DNA of 63,659 nucleotides, filler included, from assembly GCA_964501035.1 (NCBI GenBank). It is 3 parts of 3 records of this genome, joined end to end, with 100 filler letters (N's around TTAATTAATTAA, not from the genome) between each part and the next. Parts side by side here need not be neighbours in the genome. Positions count along the whole stretch, not along the records: positions 45,082 to 63,659 come from CAZCRK010000028.1; 2 more parts are not named here. One strand, given 5' to 3'. Shown here piece after piece: positions 22,533 through 59,300 of the stretch. The first letter of the stretch is position 1. Each line of letters begins with the position of its first letter. The translations under genes were made by a program, and so were the position numbers. The notes beneath the pieces were generated by a model. It was not told the origin of the DNA. It worked only from the letters and a program-made list of their open reading frames with translations, and made no database searches.

Positions 22533-22632
22533 NNNNNNNNNNNNNNNNNNNNNNNNNNNNNNNNNNNNNNNNNNNNTTAATTAATTAANNNNNNNNNNNN
22601 NNNNNNNNNNNNNNNNNNNNNNNNNNNNNNNN
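22533..22632. other. Artificial contig linker (N44-TTAATTAATTAA-N44)
   Basis: All-frame stop linker embedded in Ns. Confidence 0.95.
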
Positions 22633-42034: not shown

Positions 42035-44887
42035 ATGAAAAATATAGCATTTGTTTTTTTATTAACATTCTCATTTTCACAAGTGATGATTAATGAGTAT
42101 TCTGCATCGAACTTATCGACTTATGTGGATAATTATGAAATGGAAGAAGATTGGATTGAATTATTCAATTCCAGTGATTCTGAAATAGATATAAGTGGTT
42201 ATTATTTGAGTGATAAAGTAGATAATCCAACGAAATGGGTCATACCAGGTGGTACGTTCATTCCAGCTCAAGGGTATTTAGTATTTTGGTGTTCAGGTCG
42301 AGATGAATCGTTTGGAGATAATTTTCATACTAATTTCAAGTTAAAACAAACAAAATTAACACCCGAACATGTTGTGTTTTCAAATCCAAATGGTGAGATA
42401 ATCAATGATTTTGAATTACAGAAAACACAATTGGAGCATTCGATGGGAAGAAGTCCAAACGGAACGGATAATTGGAGAATATTTGATGAACCATCACTAG
42501 GTGCTGAAAATGGTGAAGACAGTTATATTGCATATGCAGACACACCTGAATTTTCATTAGAAGCTGGATTTTATAACGGCACACAAACTCTTGAAATAAC
42601 AACTGAAAATCCAGATTTAAACGTAAAATATACTACAAATGGCAATGCTCCTCATTATTTTTCAACTTCGTATACTGGACCTATTTCTATTTCAGAAACA
42701 CAAATTGTTAAAGCAATTGCCTATTCGAGTGATTCGGAAGTGTTACCTAGTTTTTTCACATTTAGGACATTTTTTATTGATGAGAATCATTCGCTCCCAG
42801 TTTTATCAACATCTGCAAATAGTTTAACTGTATTACTAAATGGGAACCAGTCATTAAGACCTCATGGTACTATTGAGTATTTTGAAGATGGTGAACTCAA
42901 GGATTATGGATACGGTGAGTACAATAAACATGGTCAAGATTCATGGGCATTTCCACAACGAAGTTTTGATTATATTGCACGGGATGAAATGGGGTACCAT
43001 GATGCAATTCATGAAAAATTGATTTCTACATCTGAAAGAGATGAGTTCCAACGAATCATTATTAGAGCTTCTGGAGATGATAATTATCCTGGGATTGATT
43101 CAAGTGCTCATATGCGTGATGTGTTTATTCAAAAATTAGCGGACAAACATAAACTCAATGTGGATATGCGTCGTGGTGAACGCTGTGTTGTGTATGCAAA
43201 TGGTCAGTTTTGGGGGGTTTATTCAATTCGTGAAAAAGTCAGTGATTCTGATTATACAAAATATTATTACGGTCAAGATAAATATAACATCCAGTATTTA
43301 ATGAATTGGGGATATACCTGGGCTCAATATGGGGGACAACAAGCCTTTAATGATTGGGAAGAAATACATTCCTATGCAATGAGTCACGATTTATCTATTC
43401 AATCTTATTATGAGCATGTTGCAAATGAAATTGATGTAACAAGTTTGGTTGATTACATTCTGATAAACTCTTTTGTCGTTTGTACTGATTGGATAAATTG
43501 GAATACGTCGTGGTGGAGAGGACTTAATCCCGACGGTACACATAAAAAATGGGGATATGTGTTATGGGATGAAGATGCTACATTTAACCACTATATAAAC
43601 TATACAGGTGTCCCAAGTGAATTGCCAACTGCTTCACCCTGTTACCCAGAAGGTATTACGGCAGATCCAGAACATCATATTGATTTACTTAATAAACTTC
43701 TTGAAAATGATGAATTTGAACAATATTATGTTACTCGATATATGGACCTAATGAATACTGCTTTTCAAGAAGAAAGTATGATCTCGTTATTGGAAGAAAT
43801 TGAAGATTCTATTTCACCTGAAATGCCACAACATTTTCAACGTTGGGGTGGAAACATGTTTCAGTGGCAAACCAATGTAGAAAAAATAAAACAGTTTATT
43901 CGGGATAGAATTGAATACATTCCAACTGGTTTAAATTCGTGTTATAATTTGGATGGACCTTACGAACTAACACTTCAGGTAGAACCAGAATATTCGGGTC
44001 AGATTAAAATAAATTCACTTACCATTGAAAATGATGCATATCCTTGGACTGGAATGTATCACGGTGGAATAGATATTCTTTTGGGAGTAGTGGACGAGAG
44101 TAATTTTGATCATTGGGAAATCAATAACCATCTAGTAAATGATAATTTTTCAACCAATATCGTATTAAGTTTACTTAATAGTGATGTAATTAAAGCGGTT
44201 TTCTCATCTGTTGAACCCTTAGATATTATCATCAATGAAATCAATTATAATAGTTCAGATGATTTTAATCCTGAAGATTGGGTAGAAATAATGAATCCAA
44301 CATCAGAAGAACAAGATATTTCAGGTTGGTTGTTTAAGGATGAATCAAATGACCATGTTTTTACAATTCCTGATGGTATAACACTTTCTCCAAATGAATA
44401 TTTAGTTCTTTGTAAAGATTCCCAGGCATTTTCCAATCTTTTTCCAAATGTAGATAATTATGTTGGAGATTTGGGCTTTGGTTTAAGTGGGGGTGGTGAA
44501 CTCATCAGATTGTTTAATGCAGAGGGGGTTTTGATTGACCAAGTTGAGTATGATGATGATTTTCCATGGCCAATAGAAGCAGATGGCGAAGGTGCAACTC
44601 TTGAATTAATTTCACCTACTGTGGATAACCAACTTGCTGAAAATTGGCTAGCATCCATAGGTCACGGAACCCCGGGTCAGGCCAACTCTAACACTGGGTG
44701 TGTAAATACGTTGGGAGATGTTAATGAAGATGGAAGCCATAATGTTTTAGATATTGTTTTAATGGTTGCAATAATTTTAGGAGATGAACCAACAGAATGC
44801 CAGTTGAATGCAGTTGATTTAAACCAAGATGGACAAAACAATGTTTTAGATGTTGTACTTTTAGTTAATTTAATTTTAGATATTTAA
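42035..44887 (+). CDS. Secreted CotH-kinase-family protein with lamin-tail domains and C-terminal dockerin
   Basis: VMINEY..DWIEL and IIINEIN..DWVEI lamin-tail domains; YTTNGNAP; NGQFWGVYSIREK, DW..WN, LWDEDATF; GDVNEDG...DLNQDG dockerin. Confidence 0.88.
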   Translation: MKNIAFVFLLTFSFSQVMINEYSASNLSTYVDNYEMEEDWIELFNSSDSEIDISGYYLSDKVDNPTKWVIPGGTFIPAQGYLVFWCSGRDESFGDNFHTNFKLKQTKLTPEHVVFSNPNGEIINDFELQKTQLEHSMGRSPNGTDNWRIFDEPSLGAENGEDSYIAYADTPEFSLEAGFYNGTQTLEITTENPDLNVKYTTNGNAPHYFSTSYTGPISISETQIVKAIAYSSDSEVLPSFFTFRTFFIDENHSLPVLSTSANSLTVLLNGNQSLRPHGTIEYFEDGELKDYGYGEYNKHGQDSWAFPQRSFDYIARDEMGYHDAIHEKLISTSERDEFQRIIIRASGDDNYPGIDSSAHMRDVFIQKLADKHKLNVDMRRGERCVVYANGQFWGVYSIREKVSDSDYTKYYYGQDKYNIQYLMNWGYTWAQYGGQQAFNDWEEIHSYAMSHDLSIQSYYEHVANEIDVTSLVDYILINSFVVCTDWINWNTSWWRGLNPDGTHKKWGYVLWDEDATFNHYINYTGVPSELPTASPCYPEGITADPEHHIDLLNKLLENDEFEQYYVTRYMDLMNTAFQEESMISLLEEIEDSISPEMPQHFQRWGGNMFQWQTNVEKIKQFIRDRIEYIPTGLNSCYNLDGPYELTLQVEPEYSGQIKINSLTIENDAYPWTGMYHGGIDILLGVVDESNFDHWEINNHLVNDNFSTNIVLSLLNSDVIKAVFSSVEPLDIIINEINYNSSDDFNPEDWVEIMNPTSEEQDISGWLFKDESNDHVFTIPDGITLSPNEYLVLCKDSQAFSNLFPNVDNYVGDLGFGLSGGGELIRLFNAEGVLIDQVEYDDDFPWPIEADGEGATLELISPTVDNQLAENWLASIGHGTPGQANSNTGCVNTLGDVNEDGSHNVLDIVLMVAIILGDEPTECQLNAVDLNQDGQNNVLDVVLLVNLILDI

Positions 44888-45081: not shown

Positions 45082-45142
45082 GAGAACTAACAAATGTTGC
45101 TTAACTTTAACTCAACTTTTTCGTATAAAGTCCAGGACTGGA

Positions 45143-46549
45143 ATGACCAATGAGATTGAGAGTCCACCCACCCCATCAGAATTATCCCCAATAGTGTATG
45201 AAAATGGTTCATTTATTATCACTTGGTCACAGAATGATGATGATGATTTTCAATCTTATACATTGATAGAGTTAGATTCAGAAGATATGAGTAACTATCA
45301 AGAAATATTGACTACTGAAGACCAAACAGATACGAGTTACTCTCGTTCTATTGAAATTGGAGTTATTAAGTATTATCAGGTTATTACAGAAGATATATGG
45401 GAGTTACAATCCGTTAGTAATATAGAGATAGGTAGTTCATTTATTCAGTTTGTTCAAACCTTTGGTGGAAGTAGTAGTGACTTTGGTCGTTCCGTTCAAC
45501 AAACAGAAGATGGTGGGTATATTATTACTGGGTATACATCTTCTTTCGGAAATGGTAGTAATGATGTCTGGTTAATTAAGACAGACTCCCAAGGACAAGA
45601 AGAATGGAATCAGACCTTTGGTGGAAGTGATTTTGACTATGGTTTTTCCGTTCAACAAACAGAAGATGGTGGGTATATCATTACGGGGTATACATATTCT
45701 TACGGAAACGGTGGGAGTGATGTCTGGTTAATCAAGACAGACAATCAAGGACAAGAAGAATGGAACCAGACCTTTGGTGGAAGTAGTCATGACAGGGGTT
45801 ATTCCATTCAACAAACAGAAGATGGTGGGTATATCATTACAGGGGAAACATATTCTTACGGAAATGGTGATTATGATGTCTGGTTAATCAAGACAGACTC
45901 CCAAGGACAGGAAGAATGGAATCAGACCTTTGGTGGAAGTGATAGTGACTGGGGTTCGTCCGTTCAACAAACAGAAGATGGTGGATATATCATAACAGGG
46001 AATACATCTTCTTTCGGAAATGGTGGTGATGTCTGGTTAATCAAGACAGACAATCAAGGACAAGAAGAATGGAATCAGACCTATGGGGGAAGTAGTTGGG
46101 ACTATGGTAGGTCCGTTCAACAAACAGAAGATGGTGGTTATATCATTACTGGGTATACAGAATCTTACGGAAATGGTAATTATGACGTCTGGTTAATCAA
46201 GACAGACTCCCAAGGACAGGAAGAATGGAACCAAACCTTTGGTGGAAGTAGTAGTGACTGGGGTTCGTCCGTTCAACAAACTTCAGATGGTGGATATATT
46301 ATTACAGGGCAAACATATTCTTACGGAAATGGTGATGATGTCTGGTTAATCAAGACAGACTCCCAAGGACAGGAAGAATGGAATCAGACCTTTGGTGGAA
46401 GTGATAGTGACTGGGGTTATTCCGTTCAACAAACTTCTGATGGTGGGTATATCATTACAGGGTATACACGTTCTTACGGAAATGGTAATAATGATGTCTG
46501 GTTAATCAAAACAGACTCGGAAGGGAATACAGTACCTTATGGTGAGTAA
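45143..46549 (+). CDS. Fn3-like domain plus seven-repeat beta-propeller-like protein, probably 5'-truncated
   Basis: Seven 51-52 aa repeats [52 protein letters not shown]. No signal peptide; the frame is open back to the contig start. Confidence 0.85.
45458..46523 (+). repeat. Seven tandem 153-156 bp coding repeats
   Basis: Recurrent GATGTCTGGTTAATCAAGACAGAC and CCGTTCAACAAACAGAAGATGGTGG blocks. Confidence 0.92.
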
Positions 46550-46678
46550 ACACCACACATGAGGGTGTAAGATTTTTTGTGTAAACAGCATTTTTCATTT
46601 GTAAGACAAATGTTAATCTTTAAAAAAATCATAAAGAGGTCATCATTTTCAGTTATTATTTTTGATTAAATTCCCCGT

Positions 46679-49677: not shown

Positions 49678-50338
49678 TTAAGAATTTTGGAGTNNNNNNN
49701 NNNNNNNNNNNNNNNNNNNNNNNNNNNNNNNNNNNNNNNNNNNNNNNNNNNNNNNNNNNNNNNNNNNNNNNNNNNNNNNNNNNNNNNNNNNNNGCCTCTT
49801 TATAAATTTTATTTATATTCGTTTGGCAATTTTCAAATAAAGCTAAGCGAAACTCGGAAACAGCCAAAATCAATCGTACATCCAGGTAATTGATCTTCTC
49901 ATTATGGCTAAAGTACCAATCCGGATCCAGGATAGGATTCTGGTTCCCAAAAAAGAGATTGCAGTATTCTCGAGCATTTTCATCGTCGCCCTTGGCATTA
50001 TAGCCAAAACTTAATCCGGCATAAAAGTCCAACACATCCTCAAAGTTCGAATCCATGGAGAGGTATTTGTCAAAGTAATAAACGGAGGAATCCGCTTGGC
50101 GCAAATGCCCCATGGTCCACCCCATCCCATTGTAGGAATCATAATAGGATGAATCCTTTCGAATTGCATCTCCAAACCATTGCCGGGCATCCTCAAAGTT
50201 TGCGGCTTCATACATGACCCAGCCGTAACTCGATAAATCTTCTTCCGTAGCTATGATACCTCCTCGGCAGTTTGGGAAAAAGATGAAACAAAATACCATC
50301 CCAATAATGGCGAATGTGGTTTTTAATTTGTTCATCAT
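49678..50338 (-). CDS. TPR-containing exported protein or lipoprotein, interrupted by a 100-N gap
   Basis: Hydrophobic N-terminus with FPNC; GWVMYE...DSYNGMGW TPR pattern. Probable stop TAA at 49680-49678, abutting the tadA ATG. Confidence 0.7.
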
Positions 50339-53300: not shown

Positions 53301-56300
53301 TCGTGCCATAGTTATATGTATAAGAGATGGTTGGCACAGGTGTTGTAGTGGAAATCAATTCATTCATATTAGCAGTTACCAATATATTTTGCCCACCAAT
53401 ACCGATATTACTTAAGGTTGTGTCTAATTTATTGGTGTAGGTAAAAGTAGCCTGAGGAACAATATTTTCAATATAAAGTGTATTTGTGTAAGTGATTGAA
53501 TCTGAACCGCCTAATGCATTGGTGGCATAATCCAAAGCTGTCCCGGCGGTAAACCAAGCGTTGACCATACCATTGTTATTAATACCTTCCGGTGCAGTGA
53601 ATTCATAGGTCCAAATTGAATCACTGGTGGGTGAAACTTCCATGGCACCGGATATTGAATCTTCGCCAAAGAATAAATTAATCGTGGGTGTGGGACTCAT
53701 TTTTTCAGAGAAAACAACCGTTGCAGTATCTATCATACCACCACTGATAAATTGCCTTCCAAATGTTATGGATGCTTTGGGTTTTGAAATATCATAGGTG
53801 ATGTTATTTACCGTGTTGGAGCCAATATTTCCTGCACTGTCCATTGTTGTGAATATAAGTTTATAAACCGTGCTGTCCACGATGGATGCATCAATGGTCG
53901 CTTGATTTATCAAAGCATCTTGCGCATGGGTGCCTGTATCCAAATCTGTTTCTGTAAGATCAACAGAAAAATCAGAACCGGGTCCGGACAAAACACTGAA
54001 TGATACATTGGCAGAATCTATCGTTCCATTCACATCTGTTAGCGTATAACCAATTGACATTGAATTCACAAACGATGATTCNNNNNNNNNNNNNNNNNNN
54101 NNNNNNNNNNNNNNNNNNNNNNNNNNNNNNNNNNNNNNNNNNNNNNNNNNNNNNNNNNNNNNNNNNNNNNNNNNNNNNNNNCATTCACATCTGTTAGCGT
54201 ATAACCAATTGACATTGAATTCACAAACGATGATTCGGTGGGGATAACATTAGAAATACTTGGTGCTACATTATCTACTAGGAATACATCATTGTTAATG
54301 TAGGCGTTCATTGCATTATTTCCTACATCTGTTCCGTTAACCGATAAACTTAAATAGCCATCATCCAAAGGGTTCGATGATAAACTATTTATCTGATAGG
54401 TCCATACTGTATCATTGCCAGTATATTCGTCAGGCTCTAAATCTTGATTACCACTGTTTAAATAGTGTAAAGTAAGTGTTGGTGCAGGGTTGATAGCAGA
54501 TGGCTCATCCCAATTGACCGTAACTGTAACTTGATCACCTCCATTGCCCCATAGGCGATCTATATCTCCACCAAATGCATTGGTGGCATAGCTAAGGGTA
54601 CCAATAGGACCAGTATTATCAATGATTAGATTATTAGAATAAAAAATGCTATCTAATTGGTTTTCAGCTAAATCAAAAATACTTGTAGTATCAAACTCGA
54701 TGATAACATTTCCAGTCACATTTAAATTGGATGGAATATCAATTAATAAATACCATATTGACGAATCATCCGTTGAGTCATTTAGAACCACATACTCAGT
54801 ATCATCGAAGACAGTACCTATTCCATTAGCATATTTCACTTTTACTTGTGGTGCAGACTCAGAACTCAAAGGCTCTGAGAATGTTGTTGTCAATAATACA
54901 GTAGAATCACCTTTTACTAGTGTATCACTGAATAAAAGGCTTACCCAAGGTTTAGAAATGTCATATGTAACATTATTCACCGTTTCTGAACCAATATTTC
55001 CTGCACTGTCCATTGTTGTGAATATAAGTTTATAAACCGTGCTGTCCACGATGGATGCATCAATGGTCGCTTGATTTATCAAAGCATCTTGCGCATGGGT
55101 GCCTGTATCCAAATCTGTTTCTGTAAGATCAACAGAAAAATCAGAACCGGGTCCGGACAAAACACTGAATGATACATTGGCAGAATCTATCGTTCCATTC
55201 ACATCTGTTAGCGTATAACCAATTGACATTGAATTCACAAACGATGATTCAGTGGGGATAACATTAGACACGACAGGCGCTGTGTTATCAATCAAAAATG
55301 TATTGGAGTTCACATAGGTGAAATCACTGTTATTTGCGGAATCTGAACCGGATGTTGTGAATGTAATTAACCCGTCAGCGGCAGAACCCGTTGGCAATGT
55401 AAAATTATAAGTCCAGTTATTCCCATTAATGCCAGTGTAATCTTGAACATCATTTGAACCGTCTGAAAAAGTTGCTGTCAATTGGGGCAATACAGTGAGA
55501 TCAACATTTTCATTCCAAGCCGCAACAACTGTGACTACATCCTCACCTTTTCCCAACATAGGCGGATCATCGGAACTGGTAGTATTAGCATAACTCATGG
55601 TAATCGTCGGCGAGGTATTATCAATGGTTAATCCTTGCTGATTCGAAATTTTAGAAGAATCTAAGGCATTTCCAGAAGCATCTGTGGCATAAAAGTAAAC
55701 TGTAACAAGTCCTTCGTCCCCCACATTATCAGGCATTTCTGCCGTGTAGGTCCAAATTAAACTGTCTGCAGACCCTAAGTCCATTTCTTGAGCTACCACA
55801 TCACTGAGACCACTTTGATATTTCATGTAGATTCTCGGATCACCTGACTCAAATTCCTGTCCGTTACTGTATCCATAGGCCGGTTCCGGAAAATTTGCAG
55901 TAATAACAACAGATGCTTCATTATTTGCATAAGGTGTTGAATAGGATACAGAAGCGCCGGAATGGGCAACAGTGTCAACGACGAGTGTACGAGAACTGAT
56001 TTCCTGAATAGTTTCATTTCCGGCAACATCGGTTAAAATTGAACGGAAATAAATCTTTTTTGCAGTTGAATCCACGCCGGGGAGACCAAAAACATCATTG
56101 GCTTGGACGAATGTGGTATGAAAGCCTGCTTCTACATCTCCTGCCTGCACTCGGGCCCCAACAGGAAAAGTTGTAAAAGATCCCTCGCCTTCCATTTTCC
56201 CTTGGAATCGAACTCTGGCTCCTTCACTTAAACCATCATATATCATCGTTAAATCGGTTGAATCCAATGAAGTTTCGCCTACCAATATTGAATTATTTTT

Positions 56301-59300
56301 ATTGAAATAACCAGGTACTTCAATACTACTCCGGGCATAAACTGTATCCAGGCCTTCATCTGAAGGCGGTGTTTGGTCTATCACTAACCATGCGTCAGAC
56401 GGTCCACCATCTGTAGGATTTCCTGCCTTATCTGTCACAGTACCGGAGAAATATATTATTTGATCATCGGCGAATCCCGTAGCGGATTCAATATCCGCTG
56501 CATCGATGGCCATAGTGACTGAATCATCTAAATCCGTGGATAAAATGGTGTAGGCTAAGCCGATATTTGTGGAGTCAGATCCAACGATACCCATGATTTG
56601 AACGGAACCACCGGTCAATGTTGTATCACTGGTCAACCCTACAGGAATGGTCACGCCGGAATTAACGGAATTATAATAACCTGGATAAACCGAATCCACA
56701 ACCGTCGTAACAGATGTCAAGGCAAAATCTGCCGGTGCATTCCCGTCAATATAGATATCTTTTGAATCTGAAATATTGCTGCCAGTGGAAATGGTGAATG
56801 TATTCATATCATTCCCAGCCAAGTCACGAACAGTTCCTTGCGAAATCACCAAACTATCGATAGCAAGATCAGGGCTGGCATCTCCTGACTCAACAATATA
56901 TTCAGTAAAATCAAGCGTCAGAAAATTTCCTGTTTCTATTAACCCGGTAATACTGTTCCCTGAATTCAAATAAACCGTCCAAGCAGTTCCAACATCGGAA
57001 CGAGCAACAGAATCATCAAAAGTGGCTGAAAAAGTAACGGTATCGCCAATCTTGTAATACCCGTTTGCCATTGTAGAGGTTGCGGAGGCAAATGTAGGAC
57101 GTGTGGTATCAATCAACACTGTTGTACTACTGGTGTTAAATGTTTTTTCATTTCCGGCAGCATCTGTCACCAGCGCTGTATGGTAAATGGATAAACCATC
57201 TCCAAAGTTTGCCAATGCTAAATAATTTGCAGCCGGTACAGACAGTGTTGTATTTGTATTTATATAGGCACCTCCGATGGTTACAGGTGTTCCCACATTT
57301 GCAAATGCATTTCCTGCAGTAACCTTGGCTTGAACTTGAATTGTACCACCAACAAGTGTAGCATCATCCGCCAATGGAATTGTGACATTCATGGCTGTAT
57401 TTGTACTATTCCAATAGGTGGATACTTCCGTGCCGCCTGAAGCTGCAACAGCTCCTACATCCTGGTTGATTGTGGATGAAGTATCCACGGTGATCGTATC
57501 TGCGCTGGGCGTCCCATCCGTAAAGTTTGCATATTGATCTGTAATTCGTGCTGAAATCACAATCTGGTTTCCCACATCATATGCCGCGTGGGATTCGAAA
57601 GTGGTCTCATCCACACTGATGCGGACAGAGTCACCATTCATAGCATCCCAATCAATAGTTAACGCATCACCCAATGTTGAATAGCTTCCACCACTTACCT
57701 TTGCTAAGAGTTGGACTGAACCATTATCCAACTCCGGATTTGATTCCTCCTTATCAATAGGAATTTTTAACCAAAGACTGTCATTGTAAGAATTCCAATA
57801 CTGTTTAATTGATTTGCTTGGATTCTCCGTAGCGACAGTGGTAATGCCGCCCACACCAAAATCTGCCGGTGGATTATCATTGTCTGAAATGTAGAGAAAT
57901 GTTGTTGTGTAGTCCCAAAAGTCTGTATTGGTACCCACATCAGTGATATCAAATTGAAGTGCCTCTGTATCTTCCGCAAAGTTATCGTCAGTGATTGTAA
58001 CAGTAATTGAATCCCGAATAGAACCTGCTGGAATGGTAATGGTACTTAAAACAATCCCATAATCAGAACCATCGGTGGTGGAAACGTCGGTATAGGTATA
58101 GGTGATTTCTGTATCAAAGCCGGATGCTTTATCCATTTCTATGGGTATTTTGACTGTCCCGGCACTTTCCAAAACTGTGAACCCTACCCCTTCGAAACCA
58201 CATTTGGATTTGACGTCATTATCTTCTAAAGTAACAGTGAGTGACCCATTCTCAACACTTGCATTTGAGTCTGCAGCCAGTACAACCGTAAATGTTTCAT
58301 CTCCTTCATAAGTCCAATCATGAATACCTTCAACAGTTATAGTATCTTCAAGTTCATTTATCGGAATGGTAATACCAGATGTAGCAGTTATTGTATAATC
58401 ATCACCTTCTGTGGCTGTAACATCTGTATTCTCAATAGTAAAGGTTGAGACTTTTTCTGACTCAGCATCAAGAGTAATATAAATACTTTGGTCCATATCT
58501 TCTTCGACATCACCGCTTCCTGAAATACTAGCAGTGGGCATATCATCATCATCGGTGATGGTATAGACATAAGTGGTGGCATTGATATCGTGTAAGCNNN
58601 NNNNNNNNNNNNNNNNNNNNNNNNNNNNNNNNNNNNNNNNNNNNNNNNNNNNNNNNNNNNNNNNNNNNNNNNNNNNNNNNNNNNNNNNNNNNNNNNNTCT
58701 GGCCCATCATCATCATCTAATATTTTCATTGTGTGGGTATTAAGCGTACTTGATAACGAAACATTATTTTCAGTTCCAGAAGATAAATCAACGGTGATTG
58801 TCTGGTTCTCTTCATCTACAACATCATTCAGAATCGTGATTGTAAATGTTGTGTCAGTGGTCCCTGCTTGCATGGTGACTGTACCGGTTGCTGCCAAACC
58901 TGAATAATCCTGACCCAATGTGGCTGCTGTTGAAGCCGTGGCATCCACAGCATAATTAATACTTACATCTTTTTCACTTGCAGCATCTAAGGAAAAAATG
59001 AGACTTGCAGAAGAAGTTGATTCATTAAAATTGGTATTACTGTTGGTGGTATCAATACTGATCACAGGTGGATCATCTTCATCATTAATGGTCACCACTT
59101 GAGTTTGTTGTGTCCCTAAGGATACATCCGTCACCGGCGTGGATAGAATGATGGTGAAAGTTTCATTATCTTCATCGGTATCGTCTGCAACAATTACTAA
59201 ATCAAACGGTTTTATGGTTTCTCCCGCAGGAATGGTTATTTCTTGGGATGAAAGTTGATAGTCCGTATCAGCTGTCGCTGTGCCACTGTTCCCGTCATCT

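Follow-up and report, generated by a model that had tools for sequence, protein, structure and literature searches.

GpC-free DNA and alanine-free proteins in a putative family of mobile elements of marine Marinimicrobia

Restriction sites, i.e. short palindromes, tend to be avoided by phages and other mobile elements; to our knowledge this avoidance concerns sites of 4–6 bp and is rarely complete. The transposon Tn7 targets the 3′ end of glmS, at attTn7, and the toxin MazF is associated with the idea of the ACA-less mRNA, a message that is immune when it is without the site. Here we analyze a 63,659-nt window of the genome assembly GCA_964501035.1 and, within it, one gene at the start of contig C28 (the target gene), which encodes a predicted β-propeller protein without alanine and holds a single GpC dinucleotide. 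Sequence comparison supports the view that this gene is carried as cargo by integrated mobile elements with serine recombinases, which form a family in marine Marinimicrobia; DNA of this family lacks GpC, and its proteins lack alanine because every alanine codon begins with GC.

These elements resemble palindrome-avoiding phages and mobile elements in that short G/C-containing palindromes are scarce in the element and not in the host flanks, but here a whole dinucleotide is gone (0 in 47.9 kb) and an amino acid is lost. Like Tn7, the element sits at the 3′ end of glmS; unlike Tn7, it has serine recombinases and an excisionase-like helix-turn-helix (HTH) protein, and no Tn7-type proteins were recognized in it with Pfam or PHROGs. 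According to Burke et al. 2021 (PMC8256090), viral-metagenome C5-methyltransferases favour GpC, one clade methylates any GpC, as M.CviPI does, and TET enzymes and glycosyltransferases act after GpC C5-methyltransferases in phages. These enzymes recognize exactly the excluded word and form the only specificity class that matches it; by contrast, those phages keep and modify their GpC whereas the elements have none, and our analysis found none of these enzymes in the elements or associated with their hosts. MqsR, of the MqsR/MqsA pair, is described as cleaving 5′-GC-3′-containing mRNAs (PMC9636575) and as a phage defence (PMC13409141); it is likewise GC-specific, a message without the site being immune, but it acts on RNA and does not predict the avoidance of palindromes. 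In the literature on Marinimicrobia/SAR406, GpC depletion and restriction avoidance, supplements not covered, we found no description of GpC-free elements or alanine-free proteomes.

GpC and alanine content of the target gene and its relatives

Between positions 45101 and 46587 (1487 nt), we counted one GpC where base composition predicts 53.1, whereas CpG (25), GG (122) and CC (39) are common and the observed/expected ratio (O/E) of GpC for the whole window is 0.96. The count confirms the first-pass annotation of this DNA, which had reported a single GpC where tens would be expected. That annotation had also described a product without alanine and the absence of four codons: the open reading frame (ORF) is indeed alanine-free and leaves GGC (0 of 69 Gly codons), AGC (0 of 57 Ser) and CGC (0 of 5 Arg) unused, but the absence of TGC is trivial, because the protein has no cysteine at all. 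As to its remark that flanking genes use GpC normally, the upstream flank is in fact another contig. The genome-wide survey of GpC that it had proposed singles out the target gene, which contains the longest GpC-free run of the 1.87-Mb genome (1210 nt; the next is 663 nt) and has, among the 872 ORFs of at least 250 aa, the lowest GpC O/E (0.02; the next is 0.19) as well as being the only one without alanine.

The gene is largely made of seven tandem 156-bp repeats with matches of about 85%, and because of these repeats its codon sites are not independent. Under a null model that takes the amino acid sequence and the codon usage of the genome as given and codons as independent, 16.8 GpC are expected (P(≤1) = 2.5e-7). 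Once the repeats are collapsed into 106 distinct codon states and 146 distinct junctions, the expectation is 6.08 (P(≤1) = 0.016); the N-terminal 105 codons alone give 2.15 (P(0) = 0.10) and a single blade of the propeller about 2.1 (P(0) about 0.1). Given the absence of alanine, the synonymous and junction signal in the target gene alone is only suggestive. The earlier claim that repeats alone cannot explain the depletion is thus unproven from the gene (P = 0.016 and, for the 105 codons, P = 0.10); it was the comparison with relatives, which is decisive, that settled the matter in its favour.

Alanine is absent over 393–780 aa from 20 of the best 120 protein homologues (median alanine content 3.35%). 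The orthologue in locus L003 (763 aa, 66–68% identical) has 0 GpC against 61.3 expected, and the L003 island shows 0 GpC across 4668 bp and across 4545 bp; its cargo consists of five lipoprotein genes (MORN_2 repeats, Big_7 plus propeller, one without a family), all with 0 Ala. Locus L009 (genome G170) gave the same ORF figures and was not counted separately. The island also encloses an exception that any explanation must tolerate, a 144-aa lipocalin-like lipoprotein gene (L003:7936-8370) with 9 GpC and 4 Ala, whose signal peptide is the same as that of the neighbouring genes.

Across 401 genomes of the phylum, five propeller genes among 29 loci have a GpC O/E below 0.2, the others ranging from 0.36 to about 1. 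Among metagenome loci, 10 of 38 hold at most three GpC over their whole length (1.2–4.2 kb), e.g. L039 (4034 bp, 0 GpC against 119.8 expected) and L068 (4198 bp, 0 against 103.7), and all ORFs of at least 90 aa kept in the near-GpC-free stretches of these ten loci have 0 Ala, save for one short ORF with 1 Ala. When GpC-free propeller genes are compared in pairs, their proteins are 60–87% identical, all have 0–1 GpC, and of their codons at conserved residues 9–40% are different; the GpC-free state is shown to have been maintained through deep divergence and is no frozen accident. The comparison of alanine content with homologues, another proposal of the first-pass annotation, gave a clear answer: no alanine-free homologue with normal GpC use was found; the alanine-free homologues are also without GpC at synonymous, junction and intergenic sites.

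The GpC O/E of the relatives is graded (0, about 0.1, 0.3–0.6, about 1). A tree was built from the 34 seven-blade sequences among 60 extracted, the remaining 26 having different numbers of blades. Of its 31 inner branches, 17 are open, and the GpC classes intermix (14 changes); because of this poor resolution the gradient cannot be oriented as decaying or ancestral. The closest relatives of the window protein belong to other families of the class (68–75% identity), its best match in its own family having an E value of 1e-68; closest relatives outside the own family fit horizontal spread.

An AlphaFold2 model of the target protein, based on a 30-sequence alignment (pLDDT 92.8, pTM 0.84), comprises an N-terminal β-sandwich followed by seven four-stranded blades (28 blade strands), the 156-bp unit being counted at 6.9 copies in the gene. 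The top structural match found by Foldseek is the CylK propeller (E 1e-23, TM 0.71, 22% identity), and other top matches are the seven-bladed PHL/PLL lectins of Photorhabdus. As modelled, the target is a β-sandwich plus seven-bladed β-propeller protein. It shares seven blades of about 52 aa with the SBBP/delta-60 repeat families, the CylK propeller and the Photorhabdus lectins; unlike the SBBP/delta-60 repeat families, it has no alanine and stays below the curated cut-offs of all family hidden Markov models (41.6 bits against 400 for NF047494, 37.9 against 76.5 for TIGR02608 and 16.6 against 27 for PF17164). The sole GpC falls at a variable blade position, occupied by Gln here and by Tyr, Glu or Asn in the other blades. 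As the first-pass annotation had stated, two blade positions commonly carry alanine in such repeats: in alanine-rich homologues, they do so in 33% and 61% of 424 blades, whereas the same two positions hold Thr (90%) and Asn (86%) in the 139 blades of the alanine-free clade.

The relatives, which read as surface lipoproteins, begin with MKKLY...WGCE or similar, a signal peptide with a lipobox Cys that is often followed by a Big_7 Ig domain, ahead of the point where the target ORF starts. The target ORF begins in the linker before the β-sandwich, with neither signal peptide nor lipobox and with 0 Cys; no stop codon interrupts its frame over the 61 nt back to the contig start, and the 20 codons upstream of it are not hydrophobic. 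Judging from this comparison, the ORF is probably truncated at its 5′ end, and the target copy may be a truncated remnant. A surface binding role for the propeller protein would be a guess, prompted by the fold and by the lipoprotein signal of the relatives.

Two other GpC-poor stretches of the window's genome (G000) may be recorded here. On the 1585-bp contig C159 (L108:1-1248), an ORF of 416 aa that comprises four DUF4379 treble-clef zinc-finger domains ranks as the second most GpC-poor of the genome, with 6 GpC against 34.7 expected and 5 Ala. The other stretch, on contig C54 (L109:4395-6027), lies within the gene of a Big_9/cadherin-like adhesin of 2871 aa that has a T9SS sorting domain; it holds 6 GpC where 37 are expected and includes a 663-nt GpC-free run, the remainder of the gene being normal.

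Serine recombinase elements and the 3′ end of glmS

In genome G329 (contig C3, 78755-92556; loci L099/L105), two consecutive GpCs are 13,802 bp apart in a stretch where 289.8 GpC are expected. This element is bounded by the stop codon of glmS, the last GpC belonging to the Ala codon in ...NLAKSVTVE. Abutting the stop codon are genes for a 552-aa large serine recombinase (phrog_95 integrase, E 1e-57), which would carry out the integration of the element, and for an HTH_17 excisionase-like protein; further into the element come a 228-aa serine recombinase and about 20 orphan ORFs. The 23 ORFs total 3645 aa with 0 Ala, a count that leaves out the last 12 integrase codons, which overlap glmS and hold the integrase's one Ala. 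The amino acid sequences, combined with the codon usage of the flanks, predict 143.5 GpC (log10 P(0) = -70), and the absence of alanine has by itself a log10 P of -92 at the 5.68% Ala of the host; GGC, AGC and TGC are used for none of the 180 Gly, 218 Ser and 77 Cys residues, respectively. The 14-nt motif CTATTGGAGGGTGA is present at the two ends of the element in inverted orientation, each time with a copy similar to the end of glmS, and at the left end degenerate glmS C-terminal coding sequence is fused to a 110-aa ORF.

Recombinase modules of this kind recur. In locus L068, small orphan ORFs accompany genes for an HTH protein of the excisionase family and for a serine recombinase of 228 aa (PF00239, E 3.8e-36), and beside this module lies the start of a Big_7 plus propeller gene; alanine is absent from all of these products. 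L098 has a recombinase module too. In genome G103, a whole 6614-bp contig with a related large recombinase and a small recombinase holds 2 GpC against 144 expected. Among 62 homologues of the small recombinase (46–99% identical), 45 have 0 Ala and 15 have 1–3, only the two most distant ones being alanine-rich (14 and 27 Ala). The first-pass annotation had proposed that the gene came from a replicon under a pressure against GpC that purged an amino acid, and this part of its reading stands: whole elements have 0 GpC and their proteomes are alanine-free.

The cargo lipoproteins combine a near-identical signal peptide with varied repeat domains (propeller, MORN, MORN_2, LRR, Big_7, RHS-like). Between the cargo genes, opposite-strand ORFs of about 110 aa recur in L003, L039 and L043, and similar recombinase-like fragments occur in L038 and L067. 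The products of about 110 aa are similar to the recombinase at its DNA-binding end (weak PF07508 and HTH matches), and the G329 copy and one in L067 start with a peptide like the C-terminus of glmS. From these sequences, the cargo arrays would have arisen by successive insertions at one site. Two GpC-depleted propeller genes, in L013 (1242-1410) and L011 (1553 onward), were read from the sequence as lying directly beside tRNA genes.

A survey of glmS points to the same site. The GpC-free island of L003 starts in the last glmS codons, and in L003, G329 and G018 alike no more than 24 nt separate the start of the island from the glmS stop. In the 30 best loci of the class, 27 of which hold the 3′ end of the gene, the DNA straight after the stop is GpC-free for at least 369 bp in 9 of 27. 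From stop codon to contig end, 9 of the 27 are GpC-free (six of these over 369–999 bp, with 8.6–20.3 GpC expected); three are GpC-free for 651–770 bp and then normal, six have their first GpC 125–238 bp after the stop, and nine have one within 40 bp. In G018, which belongs to the window's own genus, the 925 bp after glmS contain 0 GpC against 19.8 expected and encode an HTH fragment and an alanine-free LRR lipoprotein; a DNA search of G018 for the genes downstream of the target found none. The glmS gene of the window's genome is cut by the end of contig C42, about 22 codons short of its stop, and the target gene lies at the start of C28, an arrangement from which we infer that the target copy sits in a GpC-free island downstream of glmS. 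At least nine of the 150 glmS matches listed end within a few codons of a contig end, which fits assemblies breaking at a variable insertion site after glmS.

Two other classes of element were considered and rejected for G329. There is no capsid, terminase or tail protein among its PHROGs matches, as a prophage would have; these matches are to integrase, invertase, transposase and excisionase/HTH DNA-binding families and to families of unknown function such as phrog_4776. Nor do its 23 ORFs include any TnsA/B/C/D-type family of Pfam or PHROGs, as would be found in a Tn7-like transposon. Scans of viral contigs with the propeller, the small recombinase and a 147-aa element protein returned no relatives, by a method that detects near relatives only.

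Palindrome avoidance and explanations for the loss of GpC

Nine strict stretches of element DNA were pooled (47,936 bp, 0 GpC) and word counts were expressed as O/E against a Markov-2 expectation. The most depleted GC-free tetranucleotides in the pool are all palindromes. In the elements and in the host flanks, respectively, O/E is 0.07 and 1.05 for CCGG, 0.20 and 0.81 for CATG, 0.23 and 1.00 for CTAG, 0.23 and 0.86 for ACGT, 0.44 and 0.89 for TCGA, and 0.45 and 1.01 for GTAC; GATC stands at 0.68 in the elements. The same seven palindromes have values of 0.71–1.05 in the host flanks and, except for GATC (0.46), of 0.76–1.04 in the window's genome. The median O/E of the seven G/C-containing 4-bp palindromes is 0.23 in the elements against 0.89 in the flanks, and palindromes differ from non-palindromes with p = 4e-6 in the elements and p = 0.019 in the flanks (Mann-Whitney).

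The non-repetitive G329 element taken alone shows the same avoidance, with CATG observed 0 times (38 expected), CTAG 0 (27), ACGT 0 (23) and GTAC once (34). GATC is enriched in G329 (151 against 88.5 expected), whereas most other elements have 0–3 against 15–27 expected, and L038 has 6 against 17.6; the sets of avoided palindromes vary between elements, as host repertoires would. Among longer words, GGWCC (0.06), CTNAG (about 0.3), CCWGG (0.44) and several 6-bp palindromes are depleted in the elements. Because short palindromes are avoided in the element and not in the host flanks, selection would act on DNA, and we read the depletion of palindromes as a strong signature of restriction avoidance, i.e. 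of selection on double-stranded DNA.

Our preferred explanation, held with modest confidence, is that selection against a GpC-recognizing DNA enzyme accounts for these GpC-free, alanine-free mobile elements. The element lineage would keep its DNA free of GpC by selection on DNA, as part of an unusually complete purge of restriction/modification targets, and would thereby give no substrate to such an enzyme. A candidate agent would be cytosine methylation or hypermodification at GpC followed by modification-dependent cutting, an alternative candidate being a nuclease that cuts at GC. The first-pass annotation had named a GpC-targeting restriction, modification or mutator system. From the palindrome avoidance in the same DNA, restriction or modification appears as the probable pressure; the mutator is disfavoured, as set out below, and a GpC-specific enzyme was not found. 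A bolder proposal, which we put forward only tentatively, is that of a long-lived mobile element lineage with a natural 19-amino-acid proteome, whose life cycle would be governed by a GC-dinucleotide-specific enzyme; in its boldest version, the element or a helper phage would mark or destroy all GpC-containing nucleic acid in the cell, the element being immune by sequence alone, with neither antitoxin nor methylase.

Several points weigh against this explanation or against the place of the target gene in it. A dinucleotide-level agent must be postulated, because palindromic sites of 4 bp account for no more than 4 of the 16 NGCN contexts and cannot by themselves give zero GpC, and neither hosts nor elements yielded a GpC-specific methyltransferase, nuclease or Type IV enzyme. 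C5-methyltransferases (PF00145) are present in the window's genome and in only one of the five other island-bearing genomes. The palindrome expectations are Markov-based and not codon-aware, and the pooled stretches are partly related, so that the pooled statistics overstate independence. Apart from the recombinases and HTH proteins, the ORFs of the elements are orphans with respect to Pfam, PHROGs, NCBIfam and PADLOC, the exceptions being one PHROG of unknown function, a double zinc-ribbon domain and a few matches with E above 0.001; for the orphan ORFs, NCBIfam and PADLOC gave nothing with E below 0.001 save an excisionase-family domain on one L068 HTH protein. Among the orphans, a basic protein of 147–196 aa and a 377-aa relative of phrog_4776 are conserved. 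Finally, core genes of the element were found neither on the target's contig nor elsewhere in the assembly (tblastn and genome search), and the target's membership of an island is argued from homology and from the geometry of the contig ends.

The C5-methyltransferase of the window's genome lies on contig C80 (L076:137-1429) and is a 431-aa protein whose nearest solved relatives are M.HaeIII and M.HhaI. Its gene overlaps a 266-aa ORF (L076:1389-2186) without a Pfam family, and the two possibly form a restriction-modification pair. In the same genome, O/E is 0.81 for GGCC and, as noted above, 0.46 for GATC.

The alternative that survives best, although we consider it unlikely, places the immunity at the RNA level: GC-free transcripts would survive a GC-specific endoribonuclease, an MqsR-type toxin, with which the host would defend itself by abortive infection or the element would shut down the rest of the cell. 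The cleavage of GC-containing mRNAs and the role in phage defence described for MqsR above agree with it. GpC being its own reverse complement, transcripts of both strands would be protected, and in compact elements that are almost wholly transcribed an element-wide exclusion fits an RNA target; the GpC-containing gene inside the L003 island is also easier to accommodate gene by gene than with a DNA target. However, an RNase exerts no selection on palindromes; the strong avoidance of CCGG, CATG, CTAG, ACGT, GTAC and GGWCC suggests enzymes whose substrate is double-stranded DNA. The GpC-free zone, moreover, has the same limits as the element at the DNA level, to the point of ending at the stop codon of glmS. 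The MqsR family (PF15723) was detected in 1 of the 401 genomes of the phylum, a weak result given a control in which it was detected in 0 of 14 genomes including E. coli, the K-12 strain of which presumably carries mqsR.

A mutational purge is improbable. In this scenario, a GpC-specific cytosine deaminase, or GpC methylation followed by deamination, would turn GC into GT or AC, and only GpC-free sequence would be stable over the life cycle of the element. The replacement of Ala by Thr (ACN) at one blade position in 90% of the alanine-free blades would agree with it, as would the raised frequency of AC on the coding strand, whose O/E reaches 1.36 in the target region and 1.18 in L003, the whole window standing at 0.86. 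Yet the strand-symmetrized value for AC/GT is 1.01 in the elements, which is no marked excess, and the most Ala-prone blade position has become Asn, a replacement that requires two changes. The alanine-free recombinases start with YIRTS, YIRNS or YLRNS, against YARVS in P0182, one of the two alanine-rich homologues. Moreover, a deaminase leaves the avoidance of palindromes unexplained, and long intact ORFs at 60–87% identity speak for selection and not for damage.

We give practically no credence to the two remaining alternatives. Chance, in the form of one GC-free repeat unit with a low-GC codon bias amplified seven times, could be entertained for the target gene alone, given its amino acids (P(≤1) = 0.016 with collapsed repeats, P(0) about 0.1 for a single blade), but is refuted by non-repetitive element DNA in the same state (P about 1e-70), by the 47.9 kb pooled with 0 GpC and by the unrelated families of the islands (MORN, LRR, recombinases, orphans), all of which are GpC-free and alanine-free. 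Selection against alanine at the protein level, with GpC loss as a by-product, might suit secreted lipoproteins such as the cargo proteins, for instance if they had to resist an Ala-specific protease, but cytoplasmic enzymes of the element (integrase, recombinase, HTH proteins) likewise lack alanine, and this idea is refuted by the absence of GpC from Gly, Ser, Arg and Cys codons, codon junctions and intergenic DNA.

Layout of the window and implications

The window consists of contigs C19, C20 and C28 joined by artificial spacers and is not contiguous DNA; besides the spacer listed in Table 1, there is one at 22533-22632, and contig C28 itself contains three 100-N gaps (49694-49793, 54082-54181 and 58598-58697). 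Neighbourhood across spacers and gaps is meaningless. The features of the target region are collected in Table 1.

Table 1. Features of the target gene and of the start of contig C28 (positions in the window)
Feature	Position	Strand	Remark
Spacer N44-TTAATTAATTAA-N44, join of C20 and C28	44982..45081	.	artificial, not biology
First 61 nt of C28, frame open into the ORF	45082..45142	+	GpC at 45099-45100
GpC-depleted zone	45101..46587	.	1 GpC vs 53.1 expected; ends 39 nt past the stop codon
ORF, 468 aa, 0 Ala, 0 Cys	45143..46549	+	translation
Predicted N-terminal β-sandwich, non-repetitive, 0 GpC	45143..45457	+	residues about 13-98 in the model
Seven tandem 156-bp (52-aa) repeats, predicted seven-bladed β-propeller	45454..46518	+	repeats and model
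Sole GpC	46309..46310	+	GGG/CAA codon junction
Possible weak GpC-free hairpin ACACC...GGTGT, then T6	46550..46578	+	read by eye

The hairpin after the target stop codon was not called by a terminator scan. The first 61 nt of C28 show no homology to the upstream part of the relatives; DNA alignment of the 5′ region of the target with L046 and L064 gave no close match beyond the repeats, and no second copy of the upstream 64 nt was found in the genome or in the retrieved loci of the relatives. In four seawater metagenome runs, the summed word depth is 86–116 in the first bin (45082-45159) against about 5–12 in the unique part of the target gene, and some seawater contigs diverge from C28 after 45135. 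The first ~80 nt of C28 may be a junction or promoter sequence common to many cassettes, and such a repeated junction at the contig start possibly truncates the target gene. The contigs of these runs, fragmented by repeats, attest presence only and provide no bridge to glmS.

On contig C20, positions 42035-44887 encode an unrelated 950-aa secreted protein with two lamin-tail domains, a CotH kinase domain, a chitobiase C-terminal domain and a dockerin.

The elements indicate that alanine is dispensable for working proteins and that an amino acid can be lost from entire proteomes through selection on a DNA word of two letters. As read from their sequences, the alanine-free folds include β-propellers, Ig domains, LRR and MORN proteins and active-looking serine recombinases, and the alanine-free state spans proteins that have diverged below 50% identity. 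This bears on the limits of reduced amino acid alphabets and on the way in which conflict at the nucleic acid level shapes protein sequence, and it points to a GpC-specific agent strong enough for zero tolerance in abundant deep-ocean bacteria. GpC-free runs provide a simple marker by which the elements and their cargo can be located in metagenomes, and insertion at glmS may explain why assemblies of these bacteria often break there.

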